Assembly (NCBI GenBank): GCA_024679065.1
Contig: JAGIQG010000040.1
Location: 10,292,001-10,356,000, forward strand
Direction of reading: 5' to 3'
DNA length: 64,000 nt
From: Sphyrna mokarran
Taxonomy: Eukaryota
In this document: positions 1 to 62,645 of the stretch, one piece after another
Numbering within the stretch: the first letter of the stretch is position 1
Layout of the letters: each line of letters opens with the position of its first letter
Program-made: the position numbers and the translations under genes
Notes under the pieces: generated by a model
Database searches by the model: none
Told to the model about the DNA's origin: nothing
Seen by the model: the letters and a program-made list of their open reading frames with translations, nothing else

Positions 1-900
1 TACACACACACACACACGAACACATATATACGCATGTACATGCACAATTGACATGCACTTGTACAAACAGGCAGGAAAGCAACATGCGCTCAAATAATCA
101 CGTATACAAAAACATACACATATGGAAATGCAAACACACAAGTACACAAACACACACACACACACACAAAAAAAAAATATGCGAATAAGTACATAGGACC
201 AACTCAAACAGATACATGTATATTCACATTACAGACAGATGCACATGCATGCAGATCCACATACATACAGTTAGATAAACACGTTATCAGGATTATAGGT
301 ATAGAGACACGTAATGTTCTGCACATTAACACTCAAACATGGAAAATACATATAAACACATTAACATCTGCACATAGATGGCCAGAGTCAAACTTCTACA
401 CGCAAAACAAGCTTATACAGAACGCAACACCATAGCACACATGGAAACATAAACATACATCAACACATCGTTATGAAGAGCTAGCAGCAGATATATACAT
501 ACACTAACAAGTTAACAGACATGCATACAATCAGACGGAGGAACAGACGCACAGAGAATGGGAAGAAAACCATCCTCGTGTGACAGAAATTAACACGTTA
601 AATAGGCATGATCACATGCACACATTGTGAGTGGAATTAGTAAATATGCATAGATTTCACACAATGAGAACCATATCGCCACGTTGTCAGCAGAATAAAA
701 TGTACACAGATGCAGACACACAACTACACAATTCAACAAGCACAGGCAAATGAACACATTCATTAACCCTCATACACACACATTAACGCAGGACCAAAGG
801 TTAATGCAGACCACGAGATGCTCATGCATAAGCATACAAACACAAATTGCACCGATAAACACGTTGAAAAACTAAATTTAAGCTAATGATCTACTAACCA
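1..900. repeat. CA-rich low-complexity intronic DNA (CH4-TM intron of the left IgM cluster)
   Basis: CA/ACAC-rich sequence; inverted homolog of ~46500-47450, which lies in the CH4-TM intron of the right cluster. Confidence 0.7.
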
Positions 901-1320
901 TTTCCACCACCAATGAAAAAAGATCAGAAATTACATCCAGCTCTTAAACAGCAGCATTCACAATTTACAGATCAGTCACCATCTGTGAAAACAATCATTG
1001 ATCAGTGAAATTTTCCTGATATCACTCATAAGATTCTGCTATAAGGAATAGTGGCAAACAGTTCAAAAATGAACTGACACTCAAGAAAACATCTTCAATG
1101 TTTTTGACATGGACTGTCCAAGGAATGTACATAAAGATCAGGTGTGAAATTACGGAGATCGGTTATTGAGTGCCCTGAATTTAACAGTAGATATACAATG
1201 AAAATTATACAACAGAATAAATTAACCGTTTATGAAGGAGAACGGGGAAAGAAAAGTAACAATAAGATTCCCTGGATAAATAAAGCAATCTAATTTCATT
1301 TCCCGGCCTCCCTCCTCTAG

Positions 1321-1457
1321 ACTCTATCGACCCCAACTGGATTAACGACAATGAGGATGATAACAGCAACACCTGGACAACTGCTTCCACATTCATCGTC
1401 CTGTTCTTCCTGAGCATTTTGTACAGTACTGCCGTCACTCTGGTGAAGGTGAAATGA
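1321..1457 (+). CDS. ighm: IgM-type heavy chain transmembrane/cytoplasmic exon of a neighbouring cluster (rest lies left of the window)
   Basis: Acceptor cctccctcctctag|; phase-1 translation [45 protein letters not shown], with the conserved antigen-receptor TM motif and KVK tail. Confidence 0.92.
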
Positions 1458-2070
1458 TCCAATTTACTCACATTTCAATCTGGCAGAATGAATTTGAAAA
1501 ATCTCAGAATCTTTCACTGATTAAGAACCCTAACTTTAATGTCCCGCATCATCAGCATCTGCTTCATTCTTGTATCTTTCTTTTACAGGTCAAGTAATGA
1601 ATTGATTTCTGGACGCTGTAGATTCACCACATCTGATAATCCAAACCTCAGAATGACACAAATACAATATCTACTCTTGGTGACTCTATTAGAAAAATTC
1701 TCTCAGTTTTTCGTTCTGAATCTGTAACTGGTGCATTATAGACGTTATTTCAGTTTTCAGTGTAAAATGTAAAATGAGGCATGTTTTTGTTATAATGTAA
1801 TTGTGGTTAATAGTTTGCCCCTAGTTTACATATCATGTATTAATAAGAAACCTTTATCATTCCTTATTCACATTTGTTAATTCCTCGTTCTAATAAGATT
1901 CTGTTTTCTCTTCCTCGTGTATGTAACAGATGTACAAATATTGACGGATTCCCTGTACGTGTTCTGTTCTCAATGTGAAGCTCGATCGTTATGTCACTTT
2001 TCTAACTTTAAAAAATAATTTCGCTGTAAAATATTCTCTGATTTTTTAAAATATATATATATATATATAG

Positions 2071-2076
2071 AATAAA
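2071..2076 (+). terminator. polyadenylation signal of the left membrane-IgM transcript
   Basis: AATAAA ~610 nt after the stop codon; conserved at the equivalent position in the paralog (44416-44421). Confidence 0.65.
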
Positions 2077-3049
2077 ACTTCAACCATCTCTAGCTTGGTT
2101 TAATTCCGTTCTCCAAATCCCATCCACTCCACTCCATTTTCCCGATTGTACGGTTTCCCCCCTTTTCCCAGTCATGTGTGAAATGTGGTCGGACGCAAGG
2201 CCGTTCAGTGAAAGAGTCACTCTGTCATCCAGTGGCCAATCTGTGTAAAGACACTTTCATCTCAGCGTTTTTCTGATAAAACCCAGAGACAGAATGAGTG
2301 AAGAATGAGGAGAATCTCGGTGATTTCACTCATAAACTAGTCTGCCGCTGACCGAGTTTCAGCTAACTCTAAACAGCTAAGATTTTTGCTTCATCAGAGG
2401 CCGACGCAGGGTACTGTGAGGCAGCAGATATTTTCCTTTACACTGCCCCTTTAAAACACTATCAGAATCGCTGCAGCGTGGGTTAACAGTGTGAATCTCT
2501 ACATTTCGTCCGATGAAATACGTATAAGGCAGGAATACTACAAGATAGAAAACACATACAGAACAGAGATGCAAACCATGAAGTGAAACCAACAGACTGA
2601 TGTGTATTTTACATAAGTGCATAATAGATTACAAATTTCCAAATTATGACTAGTGTTATGGGATAATTTGAGGTGACCAATACTGTCTTTAACTACAGAC
2701 AATATAAAACTCACGAGGCAGATATTTCTGTGTAAGGACGGAACATTTATTTAAAACCTAAACACAACAAGCGGCTGCTTGGAGTTGACAAAAAGGGTTA
2801 AGTGGCTCTGGGAATACAGCGGCAGGTCCTTTCCATTGAATCTAATGTGTACAATCAATAACAGATCAATTACAGATTTTCTTATCGATCATTCCCGCCT
2901 CATATTAGTTTAAAAACCAATTACGTTCAGTAAGCATACATCAGTAGTAATTGCTGACAGGTTTCTCAGCCAATGGATCTCCTTCATCCATTTAAATCGG
3001 AGGCTGACTCATCTGTAATCAGTACCTGGGAGAATCAGGAAGATGAAAT

Positions 3050-3345
3050 AGAGTCAGAATTACAGAGGTTTATAGCATGGAAGCAGGCCCTTCGGCTCAA
3101 CATGTCTATGCCGGCCTTTTTAAATTAATAAACTTTTCGTCCCAATTGCCCACTTTTGGCCCATAATACTCAATAGTTATCTTACACATGTAACTCTCTA
3201 AGCGCTTTTGTTAAGACAAAATCGCATCCTCCTCTGCTACTACTTCTGGCAGCTTGTTCGAGACACTCACGACCATTTGTGTGAAAAAAATGTCTCTCTG
3301 GATCCTTTTATGCCTCTCTCCTCGCACCTTAAACTAGTTTAAACT
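3050..3345 (-). mobile_element. CR1/HER1-like LINE 3' fragment shared with the paralogous copy at ~42700-43408
   Basis: LINE 3'-tail motif (gaagcaggcccttcggc) at the same position in both halves of the inverted duplication. Confidence 0.55.
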
Positions 3346-3726
3346 CCACTGCATTTGATCACAACAATTTAAATTCCCTTTGTTTTGCTATTTATATGTG
3401 ACACCTCTGTCACTCACTCCACACTCACACCCCTCACCAGTGCATTCTAAATATCGTCCTAATTTCTTTGGCTTCAGCTCTGACCAATGGTCATCCAGAC
3501 ATCAAACGTAAACTCTATTCACTGTTTACAGGTGTTTTCAGGCTTGTTGAGATTTTCCAGCATTTTTTATTCTTGTTTCAGATTCCATAACAGCAGTAAA
3601 TTTCATTATATCAAGAGACACTTATCAGACAGACTTGTCCCTGGTTTACAAAAAAAAACCCGCTGAAGTAGAAACAGAATCCCAAATTCGCATGGCTAGA
3701 TTGGACTAAAGTTTTTGCAAGCAGTT

Positions 3727-8863: not shown

Positions 8864-10074
8864 GCAGGTGAAAAATCCCAAATCATTCTCATGACTTGAA
8901 GTGTATGGCGTTGCATAAACATTAACATTTTATTGTTGAACATTCAGTTTTATTCCAATGTAGTAAAATGCGATCCAGTGTTTTCAGTATTGTGCAGAAT
9001 AAAGTCTATAATGTGGCCTGTATTTCATCCACTAAGTATGCACAGTCTCAGAAAAATAAGTTATTGCAATCTAATAATTCAATTAGATGCATTGACATAG
9101 AGCTTACATTTAGTGGTTACATGAAACGATGTTGCGAACTCCAGCAGTTTATAATTGTTGATCTGTAGTGAGGTGGCAATGAGCTGCCCACATTGTTACT
9201 GAGATTTTAAAAATTAAGAATCAATTATTGAAACTTTTGAAAAAAGGTGAGGGGGTTATGCATATGCATTTTGTCTTCTGTTAGTAAGACTGGTAAATTT
9301 CCAGTAATTATATTTTTAATCACTAGATGTAGATATGGCAAGGCGAATATATCTTATCCATGTCCAGCTTTCATTTGAGAAGGCGATGAGGTGTTTGTTT
9401 CTTCAGATATCCGGATAAATAGAATGGGGACACTTCACAAGGCTTTCCAAATTAACTTTATACTGACAGACAAAATGTCTTTGAATTTTTCAACGAATTT
9501 ATTTTCTGAAGATCGTCCTGAAGCACAAGGGAAAGTTTAGTCTTTGAAAGAAGGGCTACCAGAGGTTAGAGTCTTAGCAGGAAAGGCAAATTGAAAATCG
9601 GGGCATTGAAGTCCACACTTAGAGATATGGTGTGACCTCAGTTAGTTGTAGCATGTTACCAACATCTGGAACGGCGAGATGTTGGAGGGGTTTAAAATTT
9701 GAAGGGCGAGATTATAAAAACAGACGCTGCCTGAAGGAGGGCTGATAGGGCTGATAGGGCTGATGGATGGATGGGATTAGTACGAAGAAGAATAGTGAGA
9801 GTATATTTTGGGAGAATCTGAAATTTGATAGTTATCAGAGGGGATCAACTCAGTGACCAGAGCGCAGAGATAAAATTTGGCCTGATTGCCCCTAATCTAA
9901 AATAACTTTAATCCAGTTTTGAATTTAGTGCCATTGCCAAACTTTGCAGTCAATGGAGAGTGGAGTTGGGAACATGAAAGATGGGGTCGTTCTCAGTAAC
10001 TGATTGGATAGAGCAGCAGTTGGTGTTTACAGGCCTCTCAGTAACACCTCTCTCTGTTTCTTTCTATCTCACAG

Positions 10075-10964
10075 CCAACTTGGTGACGATCGTAATCTTA
10101 TCCCGAGGACGGTGCGGGCTGTCACGGTGCATCATCTACTATCTTATCGCAATGGCATTGACTGATTTCCTTGTCATCATCACTGCCGCAATCCTCAACA
10201 GGATTGGCCGCATCTACTTTCAGAACAGCGTCCTGTCTCACATCTCCGGATGTACATTCAGCAATCTGCTGGTCTATTTTACCCGGGATGCGTCCGTCTG
10301 GTTGACAGTGGCTTTCACCATCGACCGTTTTGTGGCCATCTGCTGCCAGAGGCTAAAGACCAGATACTGTACCGAGAAAACAGCATTGCTGGTTATAGGA
10401 ATAGTCTGCATCCTGAGCTGTGTCAGGAATGTCCCTTTCTACTTCGCTTACCAGCCCTTGTACACCCTGGACGGGGTTCCCTGGTTCTGTGTTTTTAAGT
10501 TCAGTTATTACATACTGCCCGCCTGGCAGGCCTATGACTGGCTGGATAGCATCTTTACTCCATTTCTCCCGTTCCTCCTCATCCTGCTTCTTAACGCTCT
10601 GACCGTTAAACACATCTTAGCGGCCAGCAGAGCTCGCAGGAGACTCCAGGGCACGGAGAGTCACGGAGATCCAGAGATGGCCAACTGCAAGAGGTCTATC
10701 ATCCTGCTCTTCGTCATCGCCCTCAGCTTCCTCCTCCTCTGGGTCACCTACGTCATACACTTCCTCTGTGTGTGGATTACAGGTGAGGGTTACCACACCA
10801 GCCTGGATTTCAAAGACCCACGGTACATCTTTCAGGAAAGAGCAAACATGCTTCAGGTAGTCAGTTCCTGTAACAATGTCTTCATCTACGCAGTCACCCA
10901 GACCAAGTTCCGAGAGGACATGAAGAAGGTTCTGCTATGGCCCTTCAGCAAGTTCACTGGCTAA
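10075..10964 (+). CDS. GPR139-like class A GPCR gene A, exon 2
   Basis: Acceptor ctcacag|; ANLVTIVILSRGRCGLS, WLTVAFTIDRFVAIC, SSCNNVFIY; open to stop; 319 aa when joined to exon 1. Confidence 0.9.
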
Positions 10965-26428: not shown

Positions 26429-28277
26429 ATTGCACAACATTTATTCTGTCATCTTGTATCCAATTACAGCGAAAAAAAAACACTTCTTCCCTTTTGTTCA
26501 AATCCTTTCACCTGCTGGTATAAAACAACTTCTATTTTCACAATGCTCTGATTGTAGAAACGTTTGTCATCGAGCCCGAGTCCTTGTGGGGAAAGCATTG
26601 ACTCTGAATCACCAGACCACACGGGCTCCCCCATCACCAGCTCAAAAAGATCACGAGAAACTAATGTGGATGCCGGAATCTGAAATACAAACACAAAATG
26701 CTGGAGAAACTCAGCAGGGCAGAAAGAATCTGTGGAAGAACGTTTCAACCTTGACTCTGTTCTCTCTCCACAGATGCTGTCTGACCTGCTACTCCAGCAC
26801 TTGCTGTTTAGCATCACCAGCTCAATGTTGCCTTGTCCACCATTCCTGGTGACAATGAACCATCCTCCCTTGCTCCCTATCACACACCTTCCTTTTCGAG
26901 AAATTTGCCTAGCGACTCCTAAGTTTAAAATTACAAAATGCAGAAAATTTTAATTTAATGTTAATGTTGGTGGCAAATCCTGAAATTTGAACAACTTCGA
27001 AATTCAAAGCATTTGGAGACGGATATTATAATCATTAAACCATGGATACACGGTGATAGTCCTACTTGAAGCAAATTCGGATTCCTGGAGGACATATTAA
27101 ACTGGCTCCACAAGCTCGATTCTTACGCACATAAATTTATATCCGCATTGCCCCCGCTGCTTCCTCCTGTTAAAATGAGCAATGACACATTCTATTCTTT
27201 TTTTTGCTGACTTGAACAATGAAATATATCCCATTAAACTTTAAAATAATTTAACATTTGGCAATGATGTGATTCGAGCATAGTCTTCCTCAGTTATTGC
27301 TGTGCTGAATTTAGTGACATAAACTTGTCATCACTGCTACCAGAGGAAGCAATTAGTGTCATATCTGGTGCTGCCCAGAAACTGATTAAATGGAGTGAGA
27401 CAAAGTCATAAATCCCGTTCAGTTTCCTCCACCATTTAACAAGATCATGGCAAATAAAGTCACCATAATCTCACTTGAACATAAGTTGTTATTTATTCAC
27501 CTGATAAGAAAAGAAAAATACTGCGGTTATTGGAAATCTGAAATAAAAAAGGCTGGATCAACTCAACAAGTCTGGAGAGAAACAGAGTTAAAGCTTCAGA
27601 TCGAAATCATCATCCTCCAGGGATCTTCACCTTATTTGTGTTACTTCAGATGAAGATGTTATGGAAAGGTAAACGGAACAGATTCAATTTGAGGACATTT
27701 CTTATTGAGCAGCTGAGAATGCTCAAGGGGTCAAATGGCCCACTTATATCCATATTTCCCATATTCTAATCAGTGCTGGCAATCACAATGGTTATGGTGA
27801 TGTGAATGTGCCATGTGGCTGGACGAGCGGAATATTTCAGCCTCTGGTGTCAGTGCTGATTCGGTCTCAGTTCCTGCCTCTGCCAAGTTTCCAACCGGTT
27901 TGCTCCTTGAGGCGTGCGTGTTTCTCCTGAGGCCTCTCTCACTCAGTGTGTGTGACAAGGTGATTCAGCTCACCGATGTGAACAAACTCATTTTTCCAAC
28001 ACAAACCTGATTCCCGTTAGTTCAGAAGTTCATGTCAAAATGTTTCTGACATCAACAATTAAGGAGAAAGATGCAAGAGGAGTTTGTAATGTTGCAACAA
28101 AGAAGAGGAAGATGCCAATGATGTTAATGATGATAGACAGGGATGCATTGTAACCTTGGCAATTTTGTAGATTGGATACTTTATATACTTTGGAATCAGA
28201 ACAACACGAGATACCAGATGGAAAATGGCATTGGTTGTTCGCATAGTTCAGAACTTGGATTAATGTTGACCAAATGT

Positions 28278-33520: not shown

Positions 33521-34431
33521 TTATTTTCTCGGAATAATTATTTTAGTAATAAGGTTCAGTGAACATTGGAGAGCATATTTCAGCTCTTCTCTGAATTTCT
33601 TCTGAATGGCTGCGTAAATAAAGGTGTTAGTGCAGGAACTAAGAAGCTGCAGCATGTTCCCGGCTTCCTGGAGAATAAATTTGGGATCACTGAAGCTTTT
33701 AATGTTATAATCGTTGGTGATTCGTACATGCAGGAACTGTATAACATACGTCATCCACAACAGGATGAAACTGCCAGAGATTGTGAAGAGTAAAATGATG
33801 GACTTTCTCCGGCTCTCCATCTCGGTGTCAGTCTGATTCTCTCTGCCTGTTTCAGTACGGAGTCTCCTCCTGGCTCGGCTGGCTGCTAGAATGTGTCTGA
33901 CGGTCAGAACATTTAACAGGAGAATCAGAAGGAAGGGAGCACACGGGGTCAATATACGGTCAAACCAGTCGTATGCTGTCCAGAACAGCGAAGTATACCG
34001 GATGTCCTTCAGTCTGCAATACCAGGGCACATTGTCAACCACGTAAATAGGCTCGTGGATAAAGTACCACGGAATATTTGTTAAACAGCCCAGCGCACAC
34101 ACTGTCCCTATCACAATCGCCGCAGTTTTCTCGGTGCAGTATTTTATTTTCAGCTTCTGGCAGCATATTGCCACAAAGCGATCAAAGGTAAACATGACTG
34201 TTAACCAGACAGAACTCACTCTGGCTGCATAAGTTAGGGCAATGCTCAGACTACAGATTGGGGTGATGGACAAGACGCTGCCTGGAAAATAAATGCCACT
34301 GATGCGATTTAATATCACAGCGGTGATAATGACCAGTAGATCTGTCACATTCATGGAGATAAGGTATCGAGTGATACATCCCGACAGACCACATTTGCCT
34401 CTTGACAGAATCACAATCGCCACTAAATTAG
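33521..34431 (-). CDS. GPR139-like class A GPCR gene C, exon 2
   Basis: Acceptor ttaatgcag|; ANLVAIVILSRGKCGLS, FTFDRFVAICC, SSCTNTFIY; open to stop. Confidence 0.92.
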
Positions 34432-36129
34432 CTGCATTAAAGAGAACGAGAATTAATTTGCACGGGAAAACCACACTAAAATAATCTCATTGACCAAAAT
34501 GTATGGACTCTTATTTTCTGCGTCTGAAGAGAATTTTTGGGACTGAAGAAAGAAAAGCTGGTTTAATAATGTGAAGATGGAAGACATCACGGATGGAAGA
34601 AGTATATTCTTAATCATCAAAATTGATTATCCGTTTCTCCAATTTCCCCCATCGTTTTCCCCTGTCACCGCACACATTTCCTAATCACATGATGAGTCAT
34701 AAAATGGGGACAATTAGAAAAACTGAACTGATCTTGCAGGAAAAAAGAACTTCTGTGCTGCAACAATTCGAATATAAACGTGAACATAGAACACACATGT
34801 TATTGTAAGAATTGGAATAAAATCACAGATAAACCCTGTATCGTATATTGGCACAGTGTGAATGCTATAATACCTGTAGAGCATGGGATTAGCATTTTCC
34901 ACAGTTTAGCTCACTTAGTTAAACTGATGCAATCTTTCTAATTTTATTCTTTCATCTGCACTGATTAGGATATAACTTATCTTTGTCAAGACATTTTGAT
35001 GGGTGATTTTTTACACTGCATCTTCGCAGCCAATTATATTTCGGGTCAATCGTTGAAGTGCCAACAGAATCCTAGCAAGAAACGAACACTCATACTCTAT
35101 GATTTCTAATGGTTTCTCTTATGTTTGCATTCTGTGTATTGTAGCTCCGCCAATTTCGCAGAATGGCAGAATTATTACAGCTCAGCACGATGCCATTTAT
35201 CACAAACACCAGCCACTCGCAGTGTAAACAGCATTTCCTTAAATCAATTTTGCTGGTTTCATGAATGCTGTTCCCTATATTGTGCGATGTTTTTGCTAGT
35301 GGAAACAACTTCTCCACAACCAATACATCCAGAACGGTTATGACATTGAAATTTATTCCCAAACATTTATGAAGCTTTACTTCAATTCCAGAACCTTTAA
35401 CTTGACGTGTTATGCACTGTTAGGACTCTAAGCAAGTTTTTTTTGGTAAACTCCATAACAAATAACTCCTATAGATATTAAAAGTGCATTACTGCGGATG
35501 CTGGAACCAGAAACCAGAAGAGAGCACACTGAAAAATTTCAGCACGTCTGGCAGCATCTGTATGACGAGAAAAGAGCTGAGGTTTCGAGTTCAGATGACA
35601 ATTTGTCAAAGCTTTTTTTTTTATCAAAACAAACTCTTTACCGATAAATATCCCCGTCTCCAGCCCCTTAGCCGCTGCTTCATTAAATCAAATGAGGTTT
35701 GTCTGGGATGACTTAACGCTTTAGGAAATCATGTTCTGAGTTAATTCACCTCTTCTGCCCCTTGCTCTGGGCATCTCCACTAAAATGAACTGTTTCTTCC
35801 CCACAGATCTTTCAAACCTTTACTAATTTTTATCAAAGCCGTTAACTAGTTCTTTGATCTTATCTATGGAATATACAACAAATGAGATTTAAGTAACCGT
35901 TCCTGAGAATTTACTATCGAAGCCTTGGTATCGTTATGGCGAATTTACGTTCCAACATTTTTGAATGCCAAGTCTATCCTTCATACGGTGACTTGGCAGA
36001 AAAAGAATATATTGCTCTGAACGGGCCCAACCAGAGTTGAATAGAATGTCAGATATCTTATATCCTTTTGTGCACAGTATCCTTGAGTTGCATTCAGTAG
36101 ACAACGAAGAATTAATTTTGATGCATTAC

Positions 36130-42699: not shown

Positions 42700-43408
42700 G
42701 TAGAACATCGAGGTCTAGGGCAACATGGTCAGAGCTCATTGAAAATGGAGTCACAGGTGGACATGTTGTTGAAGAAGCCATTCGACATGTTTAGTTTCAT
42801 TGGCCAAAACATTGAATGCAGGGGTTCTACAAGACATTGGAATACTGTGCCATGGTATAACTCTGATAGTATTTTTACGGACGGTATGTTCTGGTCACCC
42901 TATTATAGAAAGGATATTATTAAACTAGAAGGAGTGCAGAAAATGCTTCCAGGATTTTCCTGGAAGCGAGGATGCTTCCAGGACTTGATGGTTTGAGTTA
43001 TAAGGACAGGTTGAAGAGACTGTTTTTTTTTCCCTGAGCATAGAGGGCTTCGGGATTATCTTATTGGCGTCTATGAAATAGTGTGAGGCATAAATCAGCT
43101 GGATAGTCAATATTTTTCCCGATTGTAGGGGAGTCTAAAACATAGGCTTAAGGCGAGAGAGAGAGATACAAAAAAGATCCAGAGGGGCTCTTTTCACACA
43201 AAAGTGTGAGTGTCTGGAACAATCTGCCAGAGGTATTAATAGAGGCGGGCACAATTTTGCATTAAAATCTCTTAGGCAGTCACATGAGTAAGATGGCTAT
43301 GGAAAGATACGGACCAAGGGCGGACAGTTGGGACTAGTGGGAAAAAGGCGTTATGGACATGGTCGGCCGAAAGGCCTGCTTCCATTCTGTAGACCTCTGT
43401 GACTCTAC
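42700..43408 (+). mobile_element. degraded CR1-like LINE
   Basis: FWSPYYRKDIIKLEGVQK fragment and 3' tail. Confidence 0.75.
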
Positions 43409-44415
43409 CAGATACTGATTACAAATGGGTCAGCCTCCGATTTAAATGGATAAAGGAAATATCATTATGCTGGGTTATAAAATGCGATTGACTGAGCAAC
43501 TTGTCTGGAATTATGATTGTGGAATATTTACTGAATGTAATTTATTTTTTAAACTAATATGAGCCGGGTATGATCGATAAGAAAATCTAGAGAATGAAAG
43601 AAAATGATAAGAAAATCTATAATTGATCTGTTATTGATTGTACACGTTAAATTCACTGGAAAAGTCCTGCCGCTCTGTTCCAGAGCCACTTATCCCTTTT
43701 GGTCATCTCTAAGCAACTGCTTGTTGTGTTTTTGTTTTAAATAAACCTTACATCTTTACTCAGATATATCTGCCTCGTTAGTTTTATATGTTCTGCAATT
43801 AAAGACAGTATTGGTGATTTCAAATTATCCCATAATACTCGCCATAATTTGGAAATGTGTAATTTATTATGTACTTACGTCAAAAACACCTCAGTCTCTT
43901 GGTTTCCCGTCATGATTTGCACCTCTGCTCTGTATATGTTCTCTTGCTTGTGGTATGCTTGTCTTTCATGTATTTCAACGGACGAAATATAGGGAGATTC
44001 ACACTGTTAACCCACACTGCAGCGACTCTAATCGTGTTTTTTTTAAAGGGGCAGTATAAATTAAACTATCTTCTGCCATACACTATCCTGCATCGGCCTC
44101 TGATGGAGCAAAACCTTTGCTTTTTAGAATTACCTGCAACTGGGTCAATGACAGAATAATTTATGAGAGAAATCACCAAGGTTTTCCTTATTCTTCATTC
44201 GTTTTGTCTCTGGATTTTATCAGAAACAAAGCAGAGATGAATGTGCATTTACACGGACGGCTCACCTGGTAGCGCAGTGACTCTTCCACTAAAGGCGGGG
44301 GGAACATGCCTGCCTGGGAAAGGAGGGGTGGTGGGGGGCGGGGTAATAGGGAAAATTGAGCAGAGGTGATAGATTTTGGAGAACGGAATTAAGCCAAGCC
44401 AGACTTGGTTAAAGT

Positions 44416-44421
44416 TTTATT
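44416..44421 (-). terminator. polyadenylation signal of the right membrane-IgM transcript
   Basis: AATAAA at the position equivalent to 2071-2076. Confidence 0.6.
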
Positions 44422-44970
44422 CGATATTTATTTTAAAAAATTCAGAGAAAATTTTACAGGGATTTTTTTTTTAAAGTTCGGAAGATGAATACAACGATCC
44501 AGAGAACAGAACACATGCAGAGGGAATCCATCAATATTTGTACATCTGTTACATACATCAGAAAGAGAAAATAGGACCCTGAGAGAAAGAGGAATTAATA
44601 AATGGTATAAAGAATGAAAGAAAATCTTATTTATACAAGATATTTAAACTAGAAGAAAAGTAATAACCGCAATTACATTATAACACAGAAATACTTCGTA
44701 CTTTTCACACTGAAAACTGAAATAACGCCTATAAATAGACTCAGTTACAGGTTTAGAAGATAAACTGACATAATTTTACTGACAGAATGACCGAGAGCTG
44801 ATATTGCATTTGAGCCATACAGAGATATTGATAATCAGCTGAGGGAAATCTGCAGGGTCCAAAATTCAATCCATCATTTGATCTGTAAAAGAAAGGTACA
44901 ATATTGAAGCAGATATCTATGATGCCGGACATTAACGTTAGAGTTTTTAATCAGAGAAACATTGAGAGAT

Positions 44971-45920
44971 AGAACATAGAACATAGAACATTACAGCGCA
45001 GAACAGGCCCTTCGGCCTTCGATGTTGCGCCGACCAATTATGAAAAAAGCAATGACCCTCCAAACTAAACCATTCCCTTCTCTTCCATAAACTTATCAAC
45101 GAACCTCTTAAACGCCACCAAACTTGGCGCATCTACAACTGCCGCAGGCAGGGCATTCCACTCCCTAACCACCCTCTGGGTAAAGAACCTCCCTCTGATA
45201 TCCGTCCTATAACTATCACCCCTTAATTTAAAGCTGTGTCCCCTCGTGCTAGCTTTCTCCATCCTAGGAAAAAGGCTATCACTATCCATCCTATCTAAAC
45301 CTCTAATCATCTGATATGTTTCGATAAGGTCTCCTCTTAGCCGCCTCCTTTCTAACGAAAACAACCTCAAATCCCTCAGCCTCTCTTCATAAGACCTGCC
45401 CTCCATACCAGGCAACATCCTGGTAAACCTCCTCTGTACCCTCTCCAATGCCTCCACATCTTTCTTATAATGTGGGGACCAGAACGCACACAATACTCCA
45501 AGTGCGGCCGCACTAGAGTTTTGTACAGTTGCAACATGACGTTGCGGCTCCGAAATTCAATCCCCCTACCAATAAAAGCTAAGAATCCGTATGCCTTCTT
45601 AACAACCTTATCGACTTGATTGCCAACTTTCAGGGATCTATGCACATATACACCAAGATCCCTCTGTTCTTCAACACTATTAAGAGTCCTACCATTAGCC
45701 CTATACTCTACACATTTGTTATTCCTGCCAAAGTGAATTACCTCACACGTTTCCACATTAAACTCCATTTGCCACCTCTCAGCCCAGCTCTGCAACTTGT
45801 CCAAGTCTCTCTGCAAACTATAACGCCCCTCTTCACTATCTACCACTCCACTGACTTTAGTGTCATCCGCAAACTTACTAATCCATCCGTCCAATCCAAA
45901 CTTACTAATCCAATCCATCC
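44971..45920 (-). mobile_element. young CR1/HER1-like LINE inserted in the TM-exon 3' UTR
   Basis: FADDTK and C-terminal motifs; absent from the paralogous UTR at ~1500; ATC on both flanks. Confidence 0.93.
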
Positions 45921-45965
45921 GATTTTCACATCCGTTCTGTCAGTTTGAAATGTGAGTGGATTGAA

Positions 45966-46102
45966 TCATCTCACCTTCACCAGAGTGACCGCAGTGCTGT
46001 AGAAAATGCTCAGGAAGAACAGGACGATGAATGTGGAAGCAGTTGTCCAGATGTTGCTGTTATCATCCTCATTGTCTTCAATCCAGATGTGGTTGGTGGA
46101 GT
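45966..46102 (-). CDS. ighm: IgM heavy chain transmembrane/cytoplasmic exon
   Basis: Acceptor ccccctag|; [45 protein letters not shown]. Confidence 0.92.
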
Positions 46103-48547
46103 CTAGGGGGTGGAGAACAGGCATTGAAATTAGATTACTTTATTTATCCAGGGAATCGTATTGTTACTTTTCTTTTCCTGTTCTCCTTCATAAGCTGTTA
46201 ATTTATTCTCTTGTATAATTTCCAATGTATATTTACTGTTAAGTTCAGAACACTCAGTAACCGATCTCTATAACTCTTTTCTCACTTGATCTTTGTTGAC
46301 ATTCTTGGGCAAACCATGTCAGAAATCACTGATGATGTTGTCTTGAGTATTAGTTCATACTGAACTATTTGCCACTAACCTTTATTAAAGGATATTATGA
46401 CTGATGGGGAGGAACCCTCACTGATCAATGACTGTTTCCACAGATGGTTACTGATCTGTAAATTGTGAATGTTGCTTTTTAAGAGATGGATGTAATTTCT
46501 GATCTTTTCCCATTCTTGGTGGAAATGGCCAATAGATCATCAGCATAAATGCAGTTTCTCAACGTGTTTGTCAATGCAATTTGCGTTTGTGTGCGTATGC
46601 ATGAGCATCTCGTGGCCTGCAACAAGTTTTGGTCCTGAATTAATACGTGTCTTTGAGGGTTAATGAACGTGTTCATTTGTCTGTGTTTGTTGATTTGCGT
46701 ATGTTTGTTGTGTGTGCGCGTCTGTGTACATTTTATTTTTCTGACAATGTGGATGTATTGATCTTATTGTGTGTAGCCTATGCATGTTTTGTATTGACAC
46801 TCACAATGTGTGCATACATTCATATCTATTTCAATGTGTTAATTTCTGTCACACGAGTATGGTTTCCTTCACATTCTGTGTACGTCTATTCCTCCGTCTG
46901 TTTGTATGAGTGTCTGTTAACATGTTAGTGCATGCATATCCGTGTTGATTGTTCTTCATATGTACATTTGTATTTCCGTGTATAGCAATGTGTTCTGTTT
47001 TGTATGAACATGCTAAAAAACATAAAGTTTTGCGTATAAACGTGTTGCTCTCTGTTCATCTGTGTGCTTTTAACGAATTGTGCATGCATATTTGCGTGTT
47101 CGAGTGTGAATGTGAAGGACATTTTGTGTCTCTGTATCTATATTCCTTCAGCGTGAGCGTGTGATAATATATTTATTTATTTGTGTGCATGTGTGTGTGT
47201 GTGTGTGGATCTGCATGCATGTGCATCTGTCTGCAATGTATGTAGTCATGTATCTGTTTGAGCTTTGGTCTGTCTACCTATTTGTGTGTGCATACATGTG
47301 TGTGTGAACTTGTGTGTGTTTTTTTCTATATGTCTGTGTTTGTACATATTGGATTATTTGTGTGCATGCTGTTTTCTTTCTGCTTGTTTGTACATATGTC
47401 CGTATTTGTGTACGCGTGTATGTGTGTGTGTGCATGCCTATATGCGTATTTATAATTATGGCACTTCTGCGCAGTATTGTCAGAGTGTGTATATTTTGTC
47501 TGTTGCTCCAATCACCGTAATCATTAACTGAACATCATCCAGTCAATCCGAATAATGGAGGACATTTTCAAAGTTTTACTGTATTAACTTATTTTATGTG
47601 AGAGGCATGGTGATATCAGGAGAGCGAATGAAATAATTCAATGATCCATCTCAGAAACATCAGGGACAGAACAGTGAAAACCGGGGAGAATTCTACCAGT
47701 TGTTTAAATTTGTATTATGGGAAATCAATGCCAGCACACGATTAAAAGGAACAGGAGTGTTGAAACTTTAAAAAAAAATATGTTGAGTAAGTAAATACAT
47801 ATAAAGATAATGATAATTCAAAATCCACCAAGCAACCCAGAAGCTAATTTGGACTGTTGGCAACTGAGTCCTTATAGTGGCGAGCTGATCCCTTCCAAAC
47901 ACTCTACTTGGGAGAGGGAAGAGAATGAGCTCAGAGTTTCCTCTCTCGACACGGTGAAGCAATGTCTCTGATGATTTTAACCACTGAGGAGGGGGAGGTA
48001 CAATGGATTAAATAATGACATTCCTCCTCTTTTCATTGAAGAAGTGGTGGTACATGGGTTAGTTATCGCTCCCCCCCTCTCTTTGTTGAGTGAGTAGGAA
48101 TCCGGTATGTTAACAATTTCACTCTCCCTCTCTCTGATGGGAGAAATTATTGCTCCATGTTTCTGTGTGCTCCTCATTTCAGTTCCCAATGGATGTGATG
48201 TGGCAGGTTAAAGCTGGCATCAATGGATAAAGACATGGGCAATGAGAGAAGCAGAAACAACAGAACTAAGTGTTGTGTTTGTCAGAAATGTTGAAATTGT
48301 CGGAATTTTCCTCAGAGGGAGGAAATTCGGTGAATTTGTTTTACAGAATCCTGTCATGAATGTGCTCTACTCTATCCCTAACCCAGCGTGTATCTGAGCT
48401 GTGCGCACTGGTTTATTAAAAATTAGGTCCAAGACCTAAAAATATCTGACTCAAACCAAAGATATGCAATGGAAGTAAAACTGAAAAAAAAACACAGTCA
48501 ATTAAGCGATTGGGTATTTCATTTATCGTTCGAGGAAAAATATTATT

Positions 48548-48553
48548 TTTATT
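48548..48553 (-). terminator. polyadenylation signal of the secretory form
   Basis: AATAAA ~28 nt after the secretory stop codon. Confidence 0.7.
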
Positions 48554-48580: not shown

Positions 48581-48972
48581 TCATTGACATGAATTAACGG
48601 TGTCCATCAGCGCAAGGGAAATGTTCACAAAACTGGGTTTACCGCTGGATTTGTCAACTGTTCTGTTGATGATCTTCAAGGGGATGACTTCATGTCCCAC
48701 CACACAGGAGTAAGAAGCGCCGCTGGACCATTCCTCTGCTGCAATGGATAACAGGCTGTACATGAAGAAGGAGTTATTGCCGTTCTCCGCCACCACGTCG
48801 GTGTTCCTGTAGTTCCCGGGATTCACCGGCTTGTCGTTGACGGTCCACTTGACGAAGATCTCTCGCGGGGAGAAACCTTTCACCAAGCAACTGAGGGAGA
48901 CGAATCTCTGAGCGGAGACTTCTTCTGCCGAGGGCAGGAGGACAGAGACGAACGGCTCCCGTGGATTTGGAT
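48581..48972 (-). CDS. ighm: IgM CH4 exon plus secretory tail (internal donor G|GTAAAC at 48643 for the TM splice)
   Basis: ttctgcag|; [15 protein letters not shown]...[17 protein letters not shown]...YSCVVGHE...[24 protein letters not shown], with NxS sequon and penultimate Cys. Confidence 0.95.
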
Positions 48973-49414: not shown

Positions 49415-49723
49415 CTGTTTCCTTGTGGATGGATGTTCTTAAAGGAGTCGGCAGATCCTGATGGCTCACCACGCATTCAAACACAACCGTGCTCAGCCAG
49501 GCTTGTGTCGAGGTGTTTAATTTGCTGATCACGCTGTCAGGTTCGGCTCCAGGCTTTTCGGCAATCTCCGATTTCAAATACTTCCCCTCTCGGATCCAGG
49601 ACACGTTAACTCCATAAGGAGCATTGGAAATGATGCAGGTTAAAGTCACGGTTGCCTCCAGTAAGACCTGCTCTATTGATGGGGGTTGTATCTTCACTGT
49701 GGCATCATGGCACTGGGAAGGAT
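49415..49723 (-). CDS. ighm: IgM CH3 exon
   Basis: ttcacag|[16 protein letters not shown]...LTC...VSW...[13 protein letters not shown]...|gtgag. Confidence 0.93.
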
Positions 49724-50637: not shown

Positions 50638-50943
50638 CCACAGATCCACTGATGTTCTGACTCTGGGTGAATCCTTGATGAGTGACCTGGCAGGCATAGA
50701 CCGCATTGCTGAACCATTCCCGAGCGGAGACTGTGAGCCGACTGCTGGCCGAGAAGTTTCTGTTCACTTGACAGGCAGGAGAGGTGACAATTCCTGAATC
50801 TATGGGTTGTCCATTCTTCAGCCACTTCACCGTCATTGACGCTGGCTGGAAATCAATGATTGAACAGACGATAGTTGCTAATTTCCTGCTTGTGATTTCT
50901 TCACTGGAACTCACGGTGAGGATAACGGTTGGTGGGATGTCAC
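50638..50943 (-). CDS. ighm: IgM CH2 exon
   Basis: gttgaag|..[12 protein letters not shown]...[10 protein letters not shown]...VKWLKNG...YACQVTH...|gtaag. Confidence 0.92.
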
Positions 50944-51914: not shown

Positions 51915-52214
51915 ATGGCATTTCAACGCTCTTGACTGAGTCACGGTGTCGAACTTCACAGTCAATTTTGGGGCATTCTCCCTCTGAATCGCTGATGGTT
52001 AACTGGCTGCTCAGGGTATAGGTTCCCTTCGTGTTTCTCACTGATGGGAAAGTCTTAAACCCAGTGTTGATCTGCTGCCCATCTTTCTTCCAGGTCAGTT
52101 TGGAGACATCTGGAGAGTAATCCATCGCCAAACATCCGTAGGTGACGGAGCCGTCGGAGTTCTGTTGTTGACAGGAGGAGACCAGGCCTTAGAGAGTGGG
52201 CGGAGATGGTGTCA
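51915..52214 (-). pseudogene. ighm: IgM CH1 exon with premature TAA at codon 9 (52189-52191)
   Basis: tttcccag|[45 protein letters not shown]...YTLSSQL...DCEVRH...MP|gtaagt. Confidence 0.88.
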
Positions 52215-53129
52215 CTGGGAAAGAATAGGCGATTGAACAAGTTAGACTCTTGTTTCTGTTTATTAAATCATCAAACATGTTGACTCATTTTTTTTATGTT
52301 AGATATAGCTCTTGGTGTTGAAGGGATCAAGGGGTATTGGTAGTAGGTGTGATCAAAGTGAATGGAGAAGTAGTCTCAAAGGGCCGAATGATCTATTCCT
52401 GCTTTTCTTCGATGCTTCTATCTCAAACATTGACAAGAATTATGAACTTATCCTATTATTCGCCGATTAAAACCTACATCCTCCTTTAAGATAATGTTAC
52501 TTCTATCATTTGAGAATTGTCATCTCTGTAGAAACTCAAATCCCTGTCTCCACCTCTATCAGATTAAAAAGAAAAAAATTCTGGTTTCCTCAAAATGACA
52601 TATCATTCATTGGATTAACAGAGAAGAGCAAATATTTTCTTCATTATTGCTGCCACTATTTCATTCACAAACAACAGAACCTTGTGTTGAAGAAGTTTTC
52701 TCTTCATTCATATCATCCACTCACCTGAAGAAGGAGTTTTAAAAGCTTGCAACTCCAAATAAACCTGTTAAACTTTAACCCGATGTTGTGAGAAACCTTA
52801 TTGTGTCCACACCAAACTAACGCCGGCATCTCCACACTAGTTTTGGAAATTGCTTGCGTTCAAACTGATTGATGCCCCTTCCTCGCTCCAACTCACTGCC
52901 TCTCACTCCACAAAACGAAGATTAGTGACTTTGCTTCAAAAATACCTTCGGAATGAATACTCACTGAATGATCAGGAAACTCTAAATGTGATTAAAGCTT
53001 CAAATAAATGTAACATTGACTAATTGAAGGATCACACATTAATAACAAGAGTTGGCCTTTCGGGCCCTGAAGTCTCCTCCATCATTCACTGAGATTACAT
53101 ATGAGCTGATCGTGCTATTCGCTCTATTT

Positions 53130-60909: not shown

Positions 60910-60948
60910 CTGCAGTCACCGTCACCATGGTCCCTTGTCCCCAGTAGT
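60910..60948 (-). CDS. ighj: JH segment
   Basis: ACTACTGGGGACAAGGGACCATGGTGACGGTGACTGCAG|gtaagc = YWGQGTMVTVTA. Confidence 0.95.
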
Positions 60949-60987
60949 CACAGTATCACATTCCCTTGGCTGGGTCAGACAATAACT
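60949..60987 (-). promoter_or_regulatory. JH 23-RSS
   Basis: Plus-strand CACAGTA-23 nt-ACAATAACT. Confidence 0.88.
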
Positions 60988-61313: not shown

Positions 61314-61381
61314 GGCTTTTGTATTGACAGTAACTGTTGTGCTATCCAGTTATCACAGTGAGTTACAGCATGACAGATACT
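61314..61381 (-). other. DH2 segment (coding 61342-61353, ATAACTGGATAG) with 12/12 RSS
   Basis: Plus-strand GGCTTTTGT-12-TGTTGTG | D | CACAGTG-12-ACAGATACT. Confidence 0.88.
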
Positions 61382-61698: not shown

Positions 61699-61776
61699 GG
61701 TTTTTGTATGAGGATGTCTCTGTACTCAGCACTGTGACCCCATAGTTACACAGTGACCCACACCCGCACAAAAACT
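61699..61776 (-). other. DH1 segment (coding 61737-61748, TAACTATGGGGT) with 12/22 RSS
   Basis: Plus-strand GGTTTTTGT-22-CACTGTG | D | CACAGTG-12-ACAAAAACT. Confidence 0.93.
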
Positions 61777-62125: not shown

Positions 62126-62164
62126 TGTTCTTGTCCGGGTCCGGCCCAGATTTCTCTCGCTGTG
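62126..62164 (-). promoter_or_regulatory. VH 23-RSS
   Basis: CACAGCG-23 nt-ACAAGAACA directly after YYCARD. Confidence 0.9.
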
Positions 62165-62469
62165 GTCTCTTGCACAGTAATAGACGGCGGTGTCTTCGAT
62201 CTTTAGTCCCGTAATGTGCAAAGCGAAGATATTATTTGAAAGGTCTTTGGATGGAGGAAATCGGCCCTGAATCCCTGGGGCGTAATTATTGCTCGATGAA
62301 CTTTTGTACTCTAGGAGCCATTCGAGCCCCTGTCCGGGAACCTGCCGGATCCATTGCAGCCAGTCACTGTCAAGATTGAAGCCGCTAGTTTTACAGGTCA
62401 GTTTCAGGGAGCCTCCGGGACGCCCGGTCTCTGCCTCTGGCTGGGTCAACACAATCTCCGACTGGACAC
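62165..62469 (-). CDS. ighv: VH exon (unrearranged, open reading frame)
   Basis: ttacag|[53 protein letters not shown]...[11 protein letters not shown]. Confidence 0.96.
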
Positions 62470-62599: not shown

Positions 62600-62645
62600 C
62601 AAATAAGAAACTCAACAACAAACTGAGAGAAATCACCGACCTCAT
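62600..62645 (-). CDS. ighv: VH leader exon
   Basis: ATG...MRSVISLSLLLSFLF G|gtgagt, phase 1. Confidence 0.9.

Follow-up and report, generated by a model that had tools for sequence, protein, structure and literature searches.

A premature stop codon with an in-phase candidate splice acceptor in the CH1 exon of an IgM cluster from Sphyrna mokarran

Can a premature stop codon in a shark immunoglobulin gene undo itself by supplying the splice acceptor that removes it? The question is raised by a window of 64,000 nucleotides (the whole stretch of DNA analysed here) from Sphyrna mokarran, in which the CH1 exon of an IgM heavy-chain gene contains a stop codon that overlaps a new AG. Nonsense changes that at the same time create a splice site able to excise the stop and keep the frame are described as manufactured splice rescue by Haque et al. 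(PMC10853237), and splice-site-creating nonsense variants are treated in PMC11718197.

The gene is a complete IgM minilocus on the minus strand, running from 62645 to 44874 through leader, VH, D1, D2, JH, CH1 to CH4, secretory tail, TM1 and TM2 (Table 1). The V, two D and J elements are packed into ~2 kb (62469-60910) with 12/23-type signals, which is the layout of the elasmobranch IgM minilocus, and the four C1-set exons, the secretory tail and the TM exons are homologous to shark mu. An intron of 8.7 kb separates CH1 from JH, which ends in phase 1 (...ACTGCAG/gt, with the slash marking the exon boundary). Splice sites are GT-AG throughout, there are no frameshifts in the exons, and every exon is open except for one TAA in CH1. 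The closest named match to CH1 was the IgM heavy chain of Triakis scyllium (BAJ20180.1, P0001), with 87% identity over the CH1 query, followed by Mustelus with 84%; in CH4 the identity to the Triakis protein is 95%. The window gene shares segment order, signals and exons with Triakis IgM and the elasmobranch minilocus, but differs in having the TAA at the CH1 Tyr, then Gly instead of Ser, and further in a Pro-Pro in VH FR3 and a short JH.

Table 1. Features of the IgM minilocus in the window; all lie on the minus strand
Feature	Position	Strand	Description
Leader exon	62600..62645	-	46 nt, phase 1, GT donor
VH exon	62165..62469	-	open
V recombination signal	62126..62164	-	CACAGCG-23-ACAAGAACA
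D1 (61748-61737) with signals	61699..61776	-	near-consensus 12- and 22-spacer signals
D2 (61353-61342) with signals	61314..61381	-	two 12-spacer signals
J signal (23 spacer) and JH (60948-60910)	60910..60987	-	phase 1 end, GTAAG donor
Canonical CH1 acceptor	52215..52246	-	TCTAAC branch motif (A at -28), 12/16 pyrimidines (7 T), CAG
CH1 exon	51915..52214	-	300 nt, phase 1-1, C1-set domain; donor GTAAGT
Premature TAA, CH1 codon 9	52189..52191	-	Tyr in relatives; CH1 donor 274 nt downstream, more junctions after
Candidate alternative acceptor	52188..52214	-	GTGAC branch motif (A at 52212, -25), 13/16 pyrimidines (4 T), AAG/G; exon start would be 52187
CH2 exon	50638..50943	-	open, AAG acceptor
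CH3 exon	49415..49723	-	open
CH4 and secretory tail	48581..48972	-	open; AATAAA at 48553
TM1 exon	45975..46102	-	open
TM2 exon	44874..44882	-	Ile-Lys-stop

Elsewhere in the window, the 3′ tail of a second IgM cluster (60-3353, plus strand) faces the studied cluster tail to tail; it is 74-77% identical to 43124-47394, and its TM1 (1321-1448) is open. Between the two clusters lie rhodopsin-family 7TM receptor frames (Pfam 7tm_1) at 9978-10964 (plus strand) and 33521-34486 (minus strand), and a frame resembling both, at 17079-18031 (plus strand), is split across two frames. A repeat of ~900 bp is present in three copies that are 93-97% alike, at 44969-45891 (inside the TM1-TM2 intron), 15580-16458 and 25510-26430; the frames within it resemble the ends of LINE reverse transcriptases.

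The last base of the canonical CH1 acceptor (...attctttcccAG) is 52215, and the first base of the exon is 52214. Spliced in this way, the frame of CH1 is closed by the TAA, the sole stop interrupting the gene (the translation reads TVTA-VTPSPPTL*GLVSSC), and in this the cluster departs from a functional minilocus. The sequence-only reading of this locus had proposed that the nonsense mutation itself creates an in-frame acceptor, and the arithmetic of that proposal proved correct: TAA followed by GGC places an AG at 52189-52188, and an exon opening at 52187 would keep the phase and begin 27 nt beyond the normal acceptor. The final G of J joined to GC encodes Gly, as had been predicted, so that a splice at 52187 would read TVTA-GLVSSC, remain open up to the secretory stop and give a product nine residues shorter that retains the cysteine of SSC. 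The pyrimidine-rich run reported before the new AG is indeed there, as a C-rich tract, and the CH2 acceptor does use AAG (...gttgaAG/GT, a boundary that we set by homology to Triakis IgM). The branch motif of the new site, with no AG between it and the splice point, had been overlooked. The geometry is that of a manufactured splice rescue, with the stop removed, the frame kept and a loss from the coding sequence that stays below 10% (27 nt, nine residues).

The origin of the AG depends on the parent codon. The earlier claim was that a TAY > TAA change made the AG; the AG does lie across TAA/G, but a one-change origin would need a TAY-GGC parent. In named carcharhiniform proteins the residue following the CH1 Tyr was Gly in 0/9 cases (Ser in six, Ala in two and Asn in one), and Ser also follows Tyr in P0032, a shark-type sequence under a bacterial name; Tyr-Gly is present in nurse, bamboo and horn shark proteins. 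The bacterial entry of P0032 is a Salmonella hypothetical protein from a contig of 480 bases; the sequence itself is shark IgM J-CH1-CH2 in spliced form, and is likely a contamination of that assembly. The occurrence of Ser alongside Asn and Gly in this column suggests an AGY codon, as far as proteins can indicate. If the parent was AGY, working relatives would have a YAG shifted downstream by one base, out of frame and preceded by the same tract, which they evidently tolerate, and the window gene would therefore have needed two changes, in either order. From a Tyr-Ser (AGY) parent the stop may have come first, followed by a compensatory A>G change that slid the AG from +28 to +27 and revived a dead cluster; with the AAG used and the rival message removed by NMD, the cluster would give IgM that pairs with light chain and has an elbow nine residues shorter, an acceptor-side splice rescue occurring naturally in the germline of an antibody gene. 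We consider this scenario highly improbable.

How far does the pairing of a stop with an acceptor exceed chance? Leaving out the existing stop, six of the 161 possible single-base nonsense changes in CH1-CH4 yield an in-phase AG; the proportion is 3/9 for TAY > TAA changes in the same exons and 0/12 for nonsense changes lying no more than 45 nt from an exon start. The shared phase is uninformative, because TAA or TGA followed by G in a phase-1 exon sets the AG over codon positions 3 and 1, and the resulting acceptor is always phase 1. Of the gene's 1078 other AGs, only nine share the tract and branch features of the new site (at least 13/16 pyrimidines behind a TNAY branch motif with no intervening AG, thresholds that were set after seeing the site). 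The pyrimidine run encodes the Pro, Thr, Ser and Leu codons of a T-P-S-P-P-T-L motif conserved across shark IgM, and was therefore probably not shaped for splicing. We regard the stop with its in-phase AG as a coincidence at the few-percent level or somewhat lower, arising within a many-copy family, and thus only modestly more than chance.

The strengths of the two acceptors were compared using a simple heuristic devised for this analysis, in 12 settings. The upstream CAG, which had been judged the stronger from the outset, outscored the new AAG in ten settings, tied in one and lost in one; it is intact and is the first AG past its branch motif. As described in the available text of PMC2018619, the proximal AG is favoured, with a preference of CAG>TAG>AAG>GAG. 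The new AAG equalled or exceeded the CH2 AAG acceptor in 9/12 settings, the CH2 site being the gene's weakest in most of them, and its tract equals that of the TM1 acceptor of the same gene in pyrimidines and in T content. The parts of PMC1636351 available to us describe de novo acceptors as mostly intronic, with authentic partners that are intrinsically weak, and report that A at -3 occurs six times as often in the aberrant acceptors that are used in vivo as in authentic ones.

Sequencing runs of relatives mark the normal boundary. J letters were joined at the canonical acceptor (52214) in at least three contigs, one from X19 and two from X21, among the matches listed (the best 20 of 475 for loose ends and the best 40 of 867 for base differences); these runs, RNA by guess and mostly 80-95% alike, are silent on the new boundary, with no listed row falling at 52187-52191. 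X1 was considered as the source of the studied copy and rejected, all X1 contigs differing from the window at several exon positions. The best match in the search of sequencing runs reached 0.49 of words, and the matches listed included no RNA run, a result uninformative on expression. The short-protein homologue search gave one match, P0032, which has the normal junction, and a metagenome scan with P0032 gave 372 pattern matches and no relatives among them. The idea of self-rescue is upheld in part: the AAG is a plausible minor acceptor with the right arithmetic, but the intact CAG is stronger in most heuristic settings and conserved residues would be deleted. Detectable use of the candidate site at 52187 is conceivable, although we rather doubt it.

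The shortened chain would lose V-T-P-S-P-P-T-L-(Y), which aligns with A-S-T-K-G-P-S-V-F of human IgG1 in an alignment made with the Triakis sequence; the counterpart of this segment is retained in all shark relatives examined. The last residue of the aligned human segment is, we take it, Phe126 by IgG numbering. According to the portion of PMC4622537 available, Phe126 faces the light chain, close enough to its Ser121 for a disulfide to be engineered between the two. In a set of 20 shark heavy chains, four columns of this region reach a conservation of at least 90%: Pro, Leu and Tyr within the deletion, among them the counterpart of IgG Phe126, and the next Leu just outside it. Splicing at 52187 would shorten the spacing from the J Trp to the first C-domain Cys from 38 to 29 residues, against a natural range of 32-39 in 92/92 junctions from 90 proteins; these are pattern matches in 90 of 178 fetched proteins, with a bias towards intact spacing from a similarity query that included this segment. 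The sequence-only reading had placed the loss at the start of CH1 strand A, which holds for two of the nine residues (Leu-Tyr, in strand by DSSP in a P0032 model of mean pLDDT 68), while the linker would be lost too. The full-length AlphaFold model was set aside as too poor at the elbow (pLDDT <50 at 133-149), and the available text of PMC7555362 did not settle the CH1 strand boundaries.

With this segment removed, VH strand G and CH1 strand A would be rivals for one set of residues, and the shortened chain is unlikely to fold or to pair with a light chain. Unpaired CH1 is retained by BiP (PMC5113765, in the text available), and ER retention is therefore the likely fate of such a chain; the evidence for BiP retention and for NMD comes from chicken and mouse rather than from sharks. 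A full rescue would need the AAG at 52187 to be used enough, and the nine-residue-short chain to fold and pair with a light chain, giving IgM with a short VH-CH1 elbow. The frame from 52187 is in phase and open to the end, the site has a branch motif of its own in a combination that few decoys reproduce, the SSC cysteine is retained, and there is human precedent, with 201/559 apparent nonsense splice-creating variants escaping truncation in the available account (PMC11718197); however, the upstream CAG is intact and stronger, the spacing of 29 falls outside all 92 natural junctions, and the Phe126 counterpart is lost along with conserved Pro and Leu. We consider rescue of this kind very unlikely, and put a working antibody made via 52187 far below detectable use of the site.

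Skipping of the whole CH1 exon would also avoid the stop; the product, VH-CH2-CH3-CH4, would be a heavy-chain-only IgM not subject to ER retention. Joining J to CH2 keeps the frame and leaves it open. In light-chain-knockout chickens, IgM lacking CH1 is secreted and sustains B cells (PMC5113765), and Ig genes are known to skip exons in association with stops (PMC7072976). However, the CH1 donor and acceptor are intact, the CH2 acceptor to which J would have to be joined is a weak one, and FR2 of VH keeps the light-chain-facing motif QVPGQGLEW as in ordinary shark VH, so the gene does not have the marks of a heavy-chain-only antibody gene; we find this route quite unlikely. CH1-less antibodies of camelids and of IgL-knockout chickens (PMC5113765, as available) likewise splice around CH1 to express a heavy chain, but those chains drop the entire domain and escape BiP, whereas the 27-nt shift would leave a damaged CH1 with its splice sites intact.

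The state of the rest of the gene bears on its age as a damaged copy. With one stop, and the other exons and splice sites intact, the damage is probably recent. FR3 of VH reads RFPPSK, the codons CCT CCA (62257-62252, minus strand) encoding Pro-Pro where 10/10 homologues have Thr at the first position and Ala, Val or Ser at the second (Pro in 0/10); this is a possible second lesion. The 3′ heptamer of D2, CACAACA, has three departures from consensus, and JH, with just 5 nt ahead of the Trp codon, may have lost ~9 nt in frame. Private changes at otherwise invariant columns number 7/169 in C (the stop included), against 7/169 in the Triakis IgM protein, and 3/39 in V, against one to four in six of seven others. 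The slight decay, the Pro-Pro and the D2 heptamer fit a recently disabled copy, short of proof; against the view of a dead copy, broad decay of the gene is absent and the new site is far from poor as an acceptor in comparison with the CH2 and TM1 sites. An assembly error in an otherwise ordinary functional IgM cluster would also account for a gene with a single stop that is known from the assembly alone, but no exon contains a frameshift, base accuracy appears to be high, and the FR3 prolines are among further changes private to this copy. We hold this to be the least probable of the explanations.

It is also conceivable that the C region is dead while the VDJ remains useful, through expression with the constant exons of another cluster. 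The leader and the V, D1, D2 and J segments are all open, and their signals can be recognised; switching between clusters is reported for nurse shark (PMC4279169), and the tail of the second IgM cluster lies within the same window. However, switching comes after activation, and a B cell would presumably need a working receptor first; the V segment may already be compromised by its FR3 prolines and by the weak heptamer of D2. We judge this donation of the VDJ unlikely.

Taken together, these results indicate that this is probably a recently disabled IgM cluster, in which splicing would go mainly to the intact CAG, the stop-bearing mRNA would be degraded, and the AAG would be a by-product of codon geometry with low or no use. 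The first AG past the branch point, the canonical CAG, would win, and the stop-bearing canonical messages would be removed by NMD; in the mouse IgH gene a CH1 stop triggers strong NMD (PMC7072976, from the text available). The 27-nt-shorter message may look enriched among NMD survivors. Its product would join VH strand G straight to the middle of CH1 strand A, misfold or stay unpaired, and be held in the ER, so that the cluster itself would contribute no working IgM, a loss covered by other clusters. What probability remains we assign to mixtures of these explanations and to a segregating null allele.

TP53 Y126*, judged by its exon position, presumably acts via an acceptor. It is a Tyr-to-stop example of splice rescue, giving Y126del (PMC10853237, PMC11718197, both in their available text). 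The available text of Haque et al. (PMC10853237) covers donors only, with 0 matches to 'acceptor', whereas the window candidate is an acceptor; and the human registry cases, in the text available from PMC11718197, rest on RNA evidence, whereas the window case is read from DNA alone in a multi-copy shark germline gene. No report of a shark IgM premature stop with an alternative splice acceptor was found in the literature by title or abstract start. The mechanism is already known from human genes, and the feature in the window is most likely a shark IgM look-alike by chance. IgM genes occur in many copies in sharks, and pseudogenes are known among them (PMC5192425, PMC2435157); the nurse shark pseudogenes described there (Groups 6-8 and G2C) are likewise non-functional clusters beside functional ones, whereas the window copy has one stop and little decay.

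If the young null copy is the right reading, the locus is of little import, being another young pseudogene in the multi-copy shark IgM family. It does offer a caution: whenever a stop in a phase-1 Ig exon is TAA-G or TGA-G, it will look 'rescuable'. Were rescue true, CH1 would tolerate the loss of the elbow and of the start of strand A, at a spacing unseen in the natural junctions, and expression would be possible from Ig clusters whose annotation as pseudogenes rests on a single stop, which would change the counts of functional shark IgM genes.
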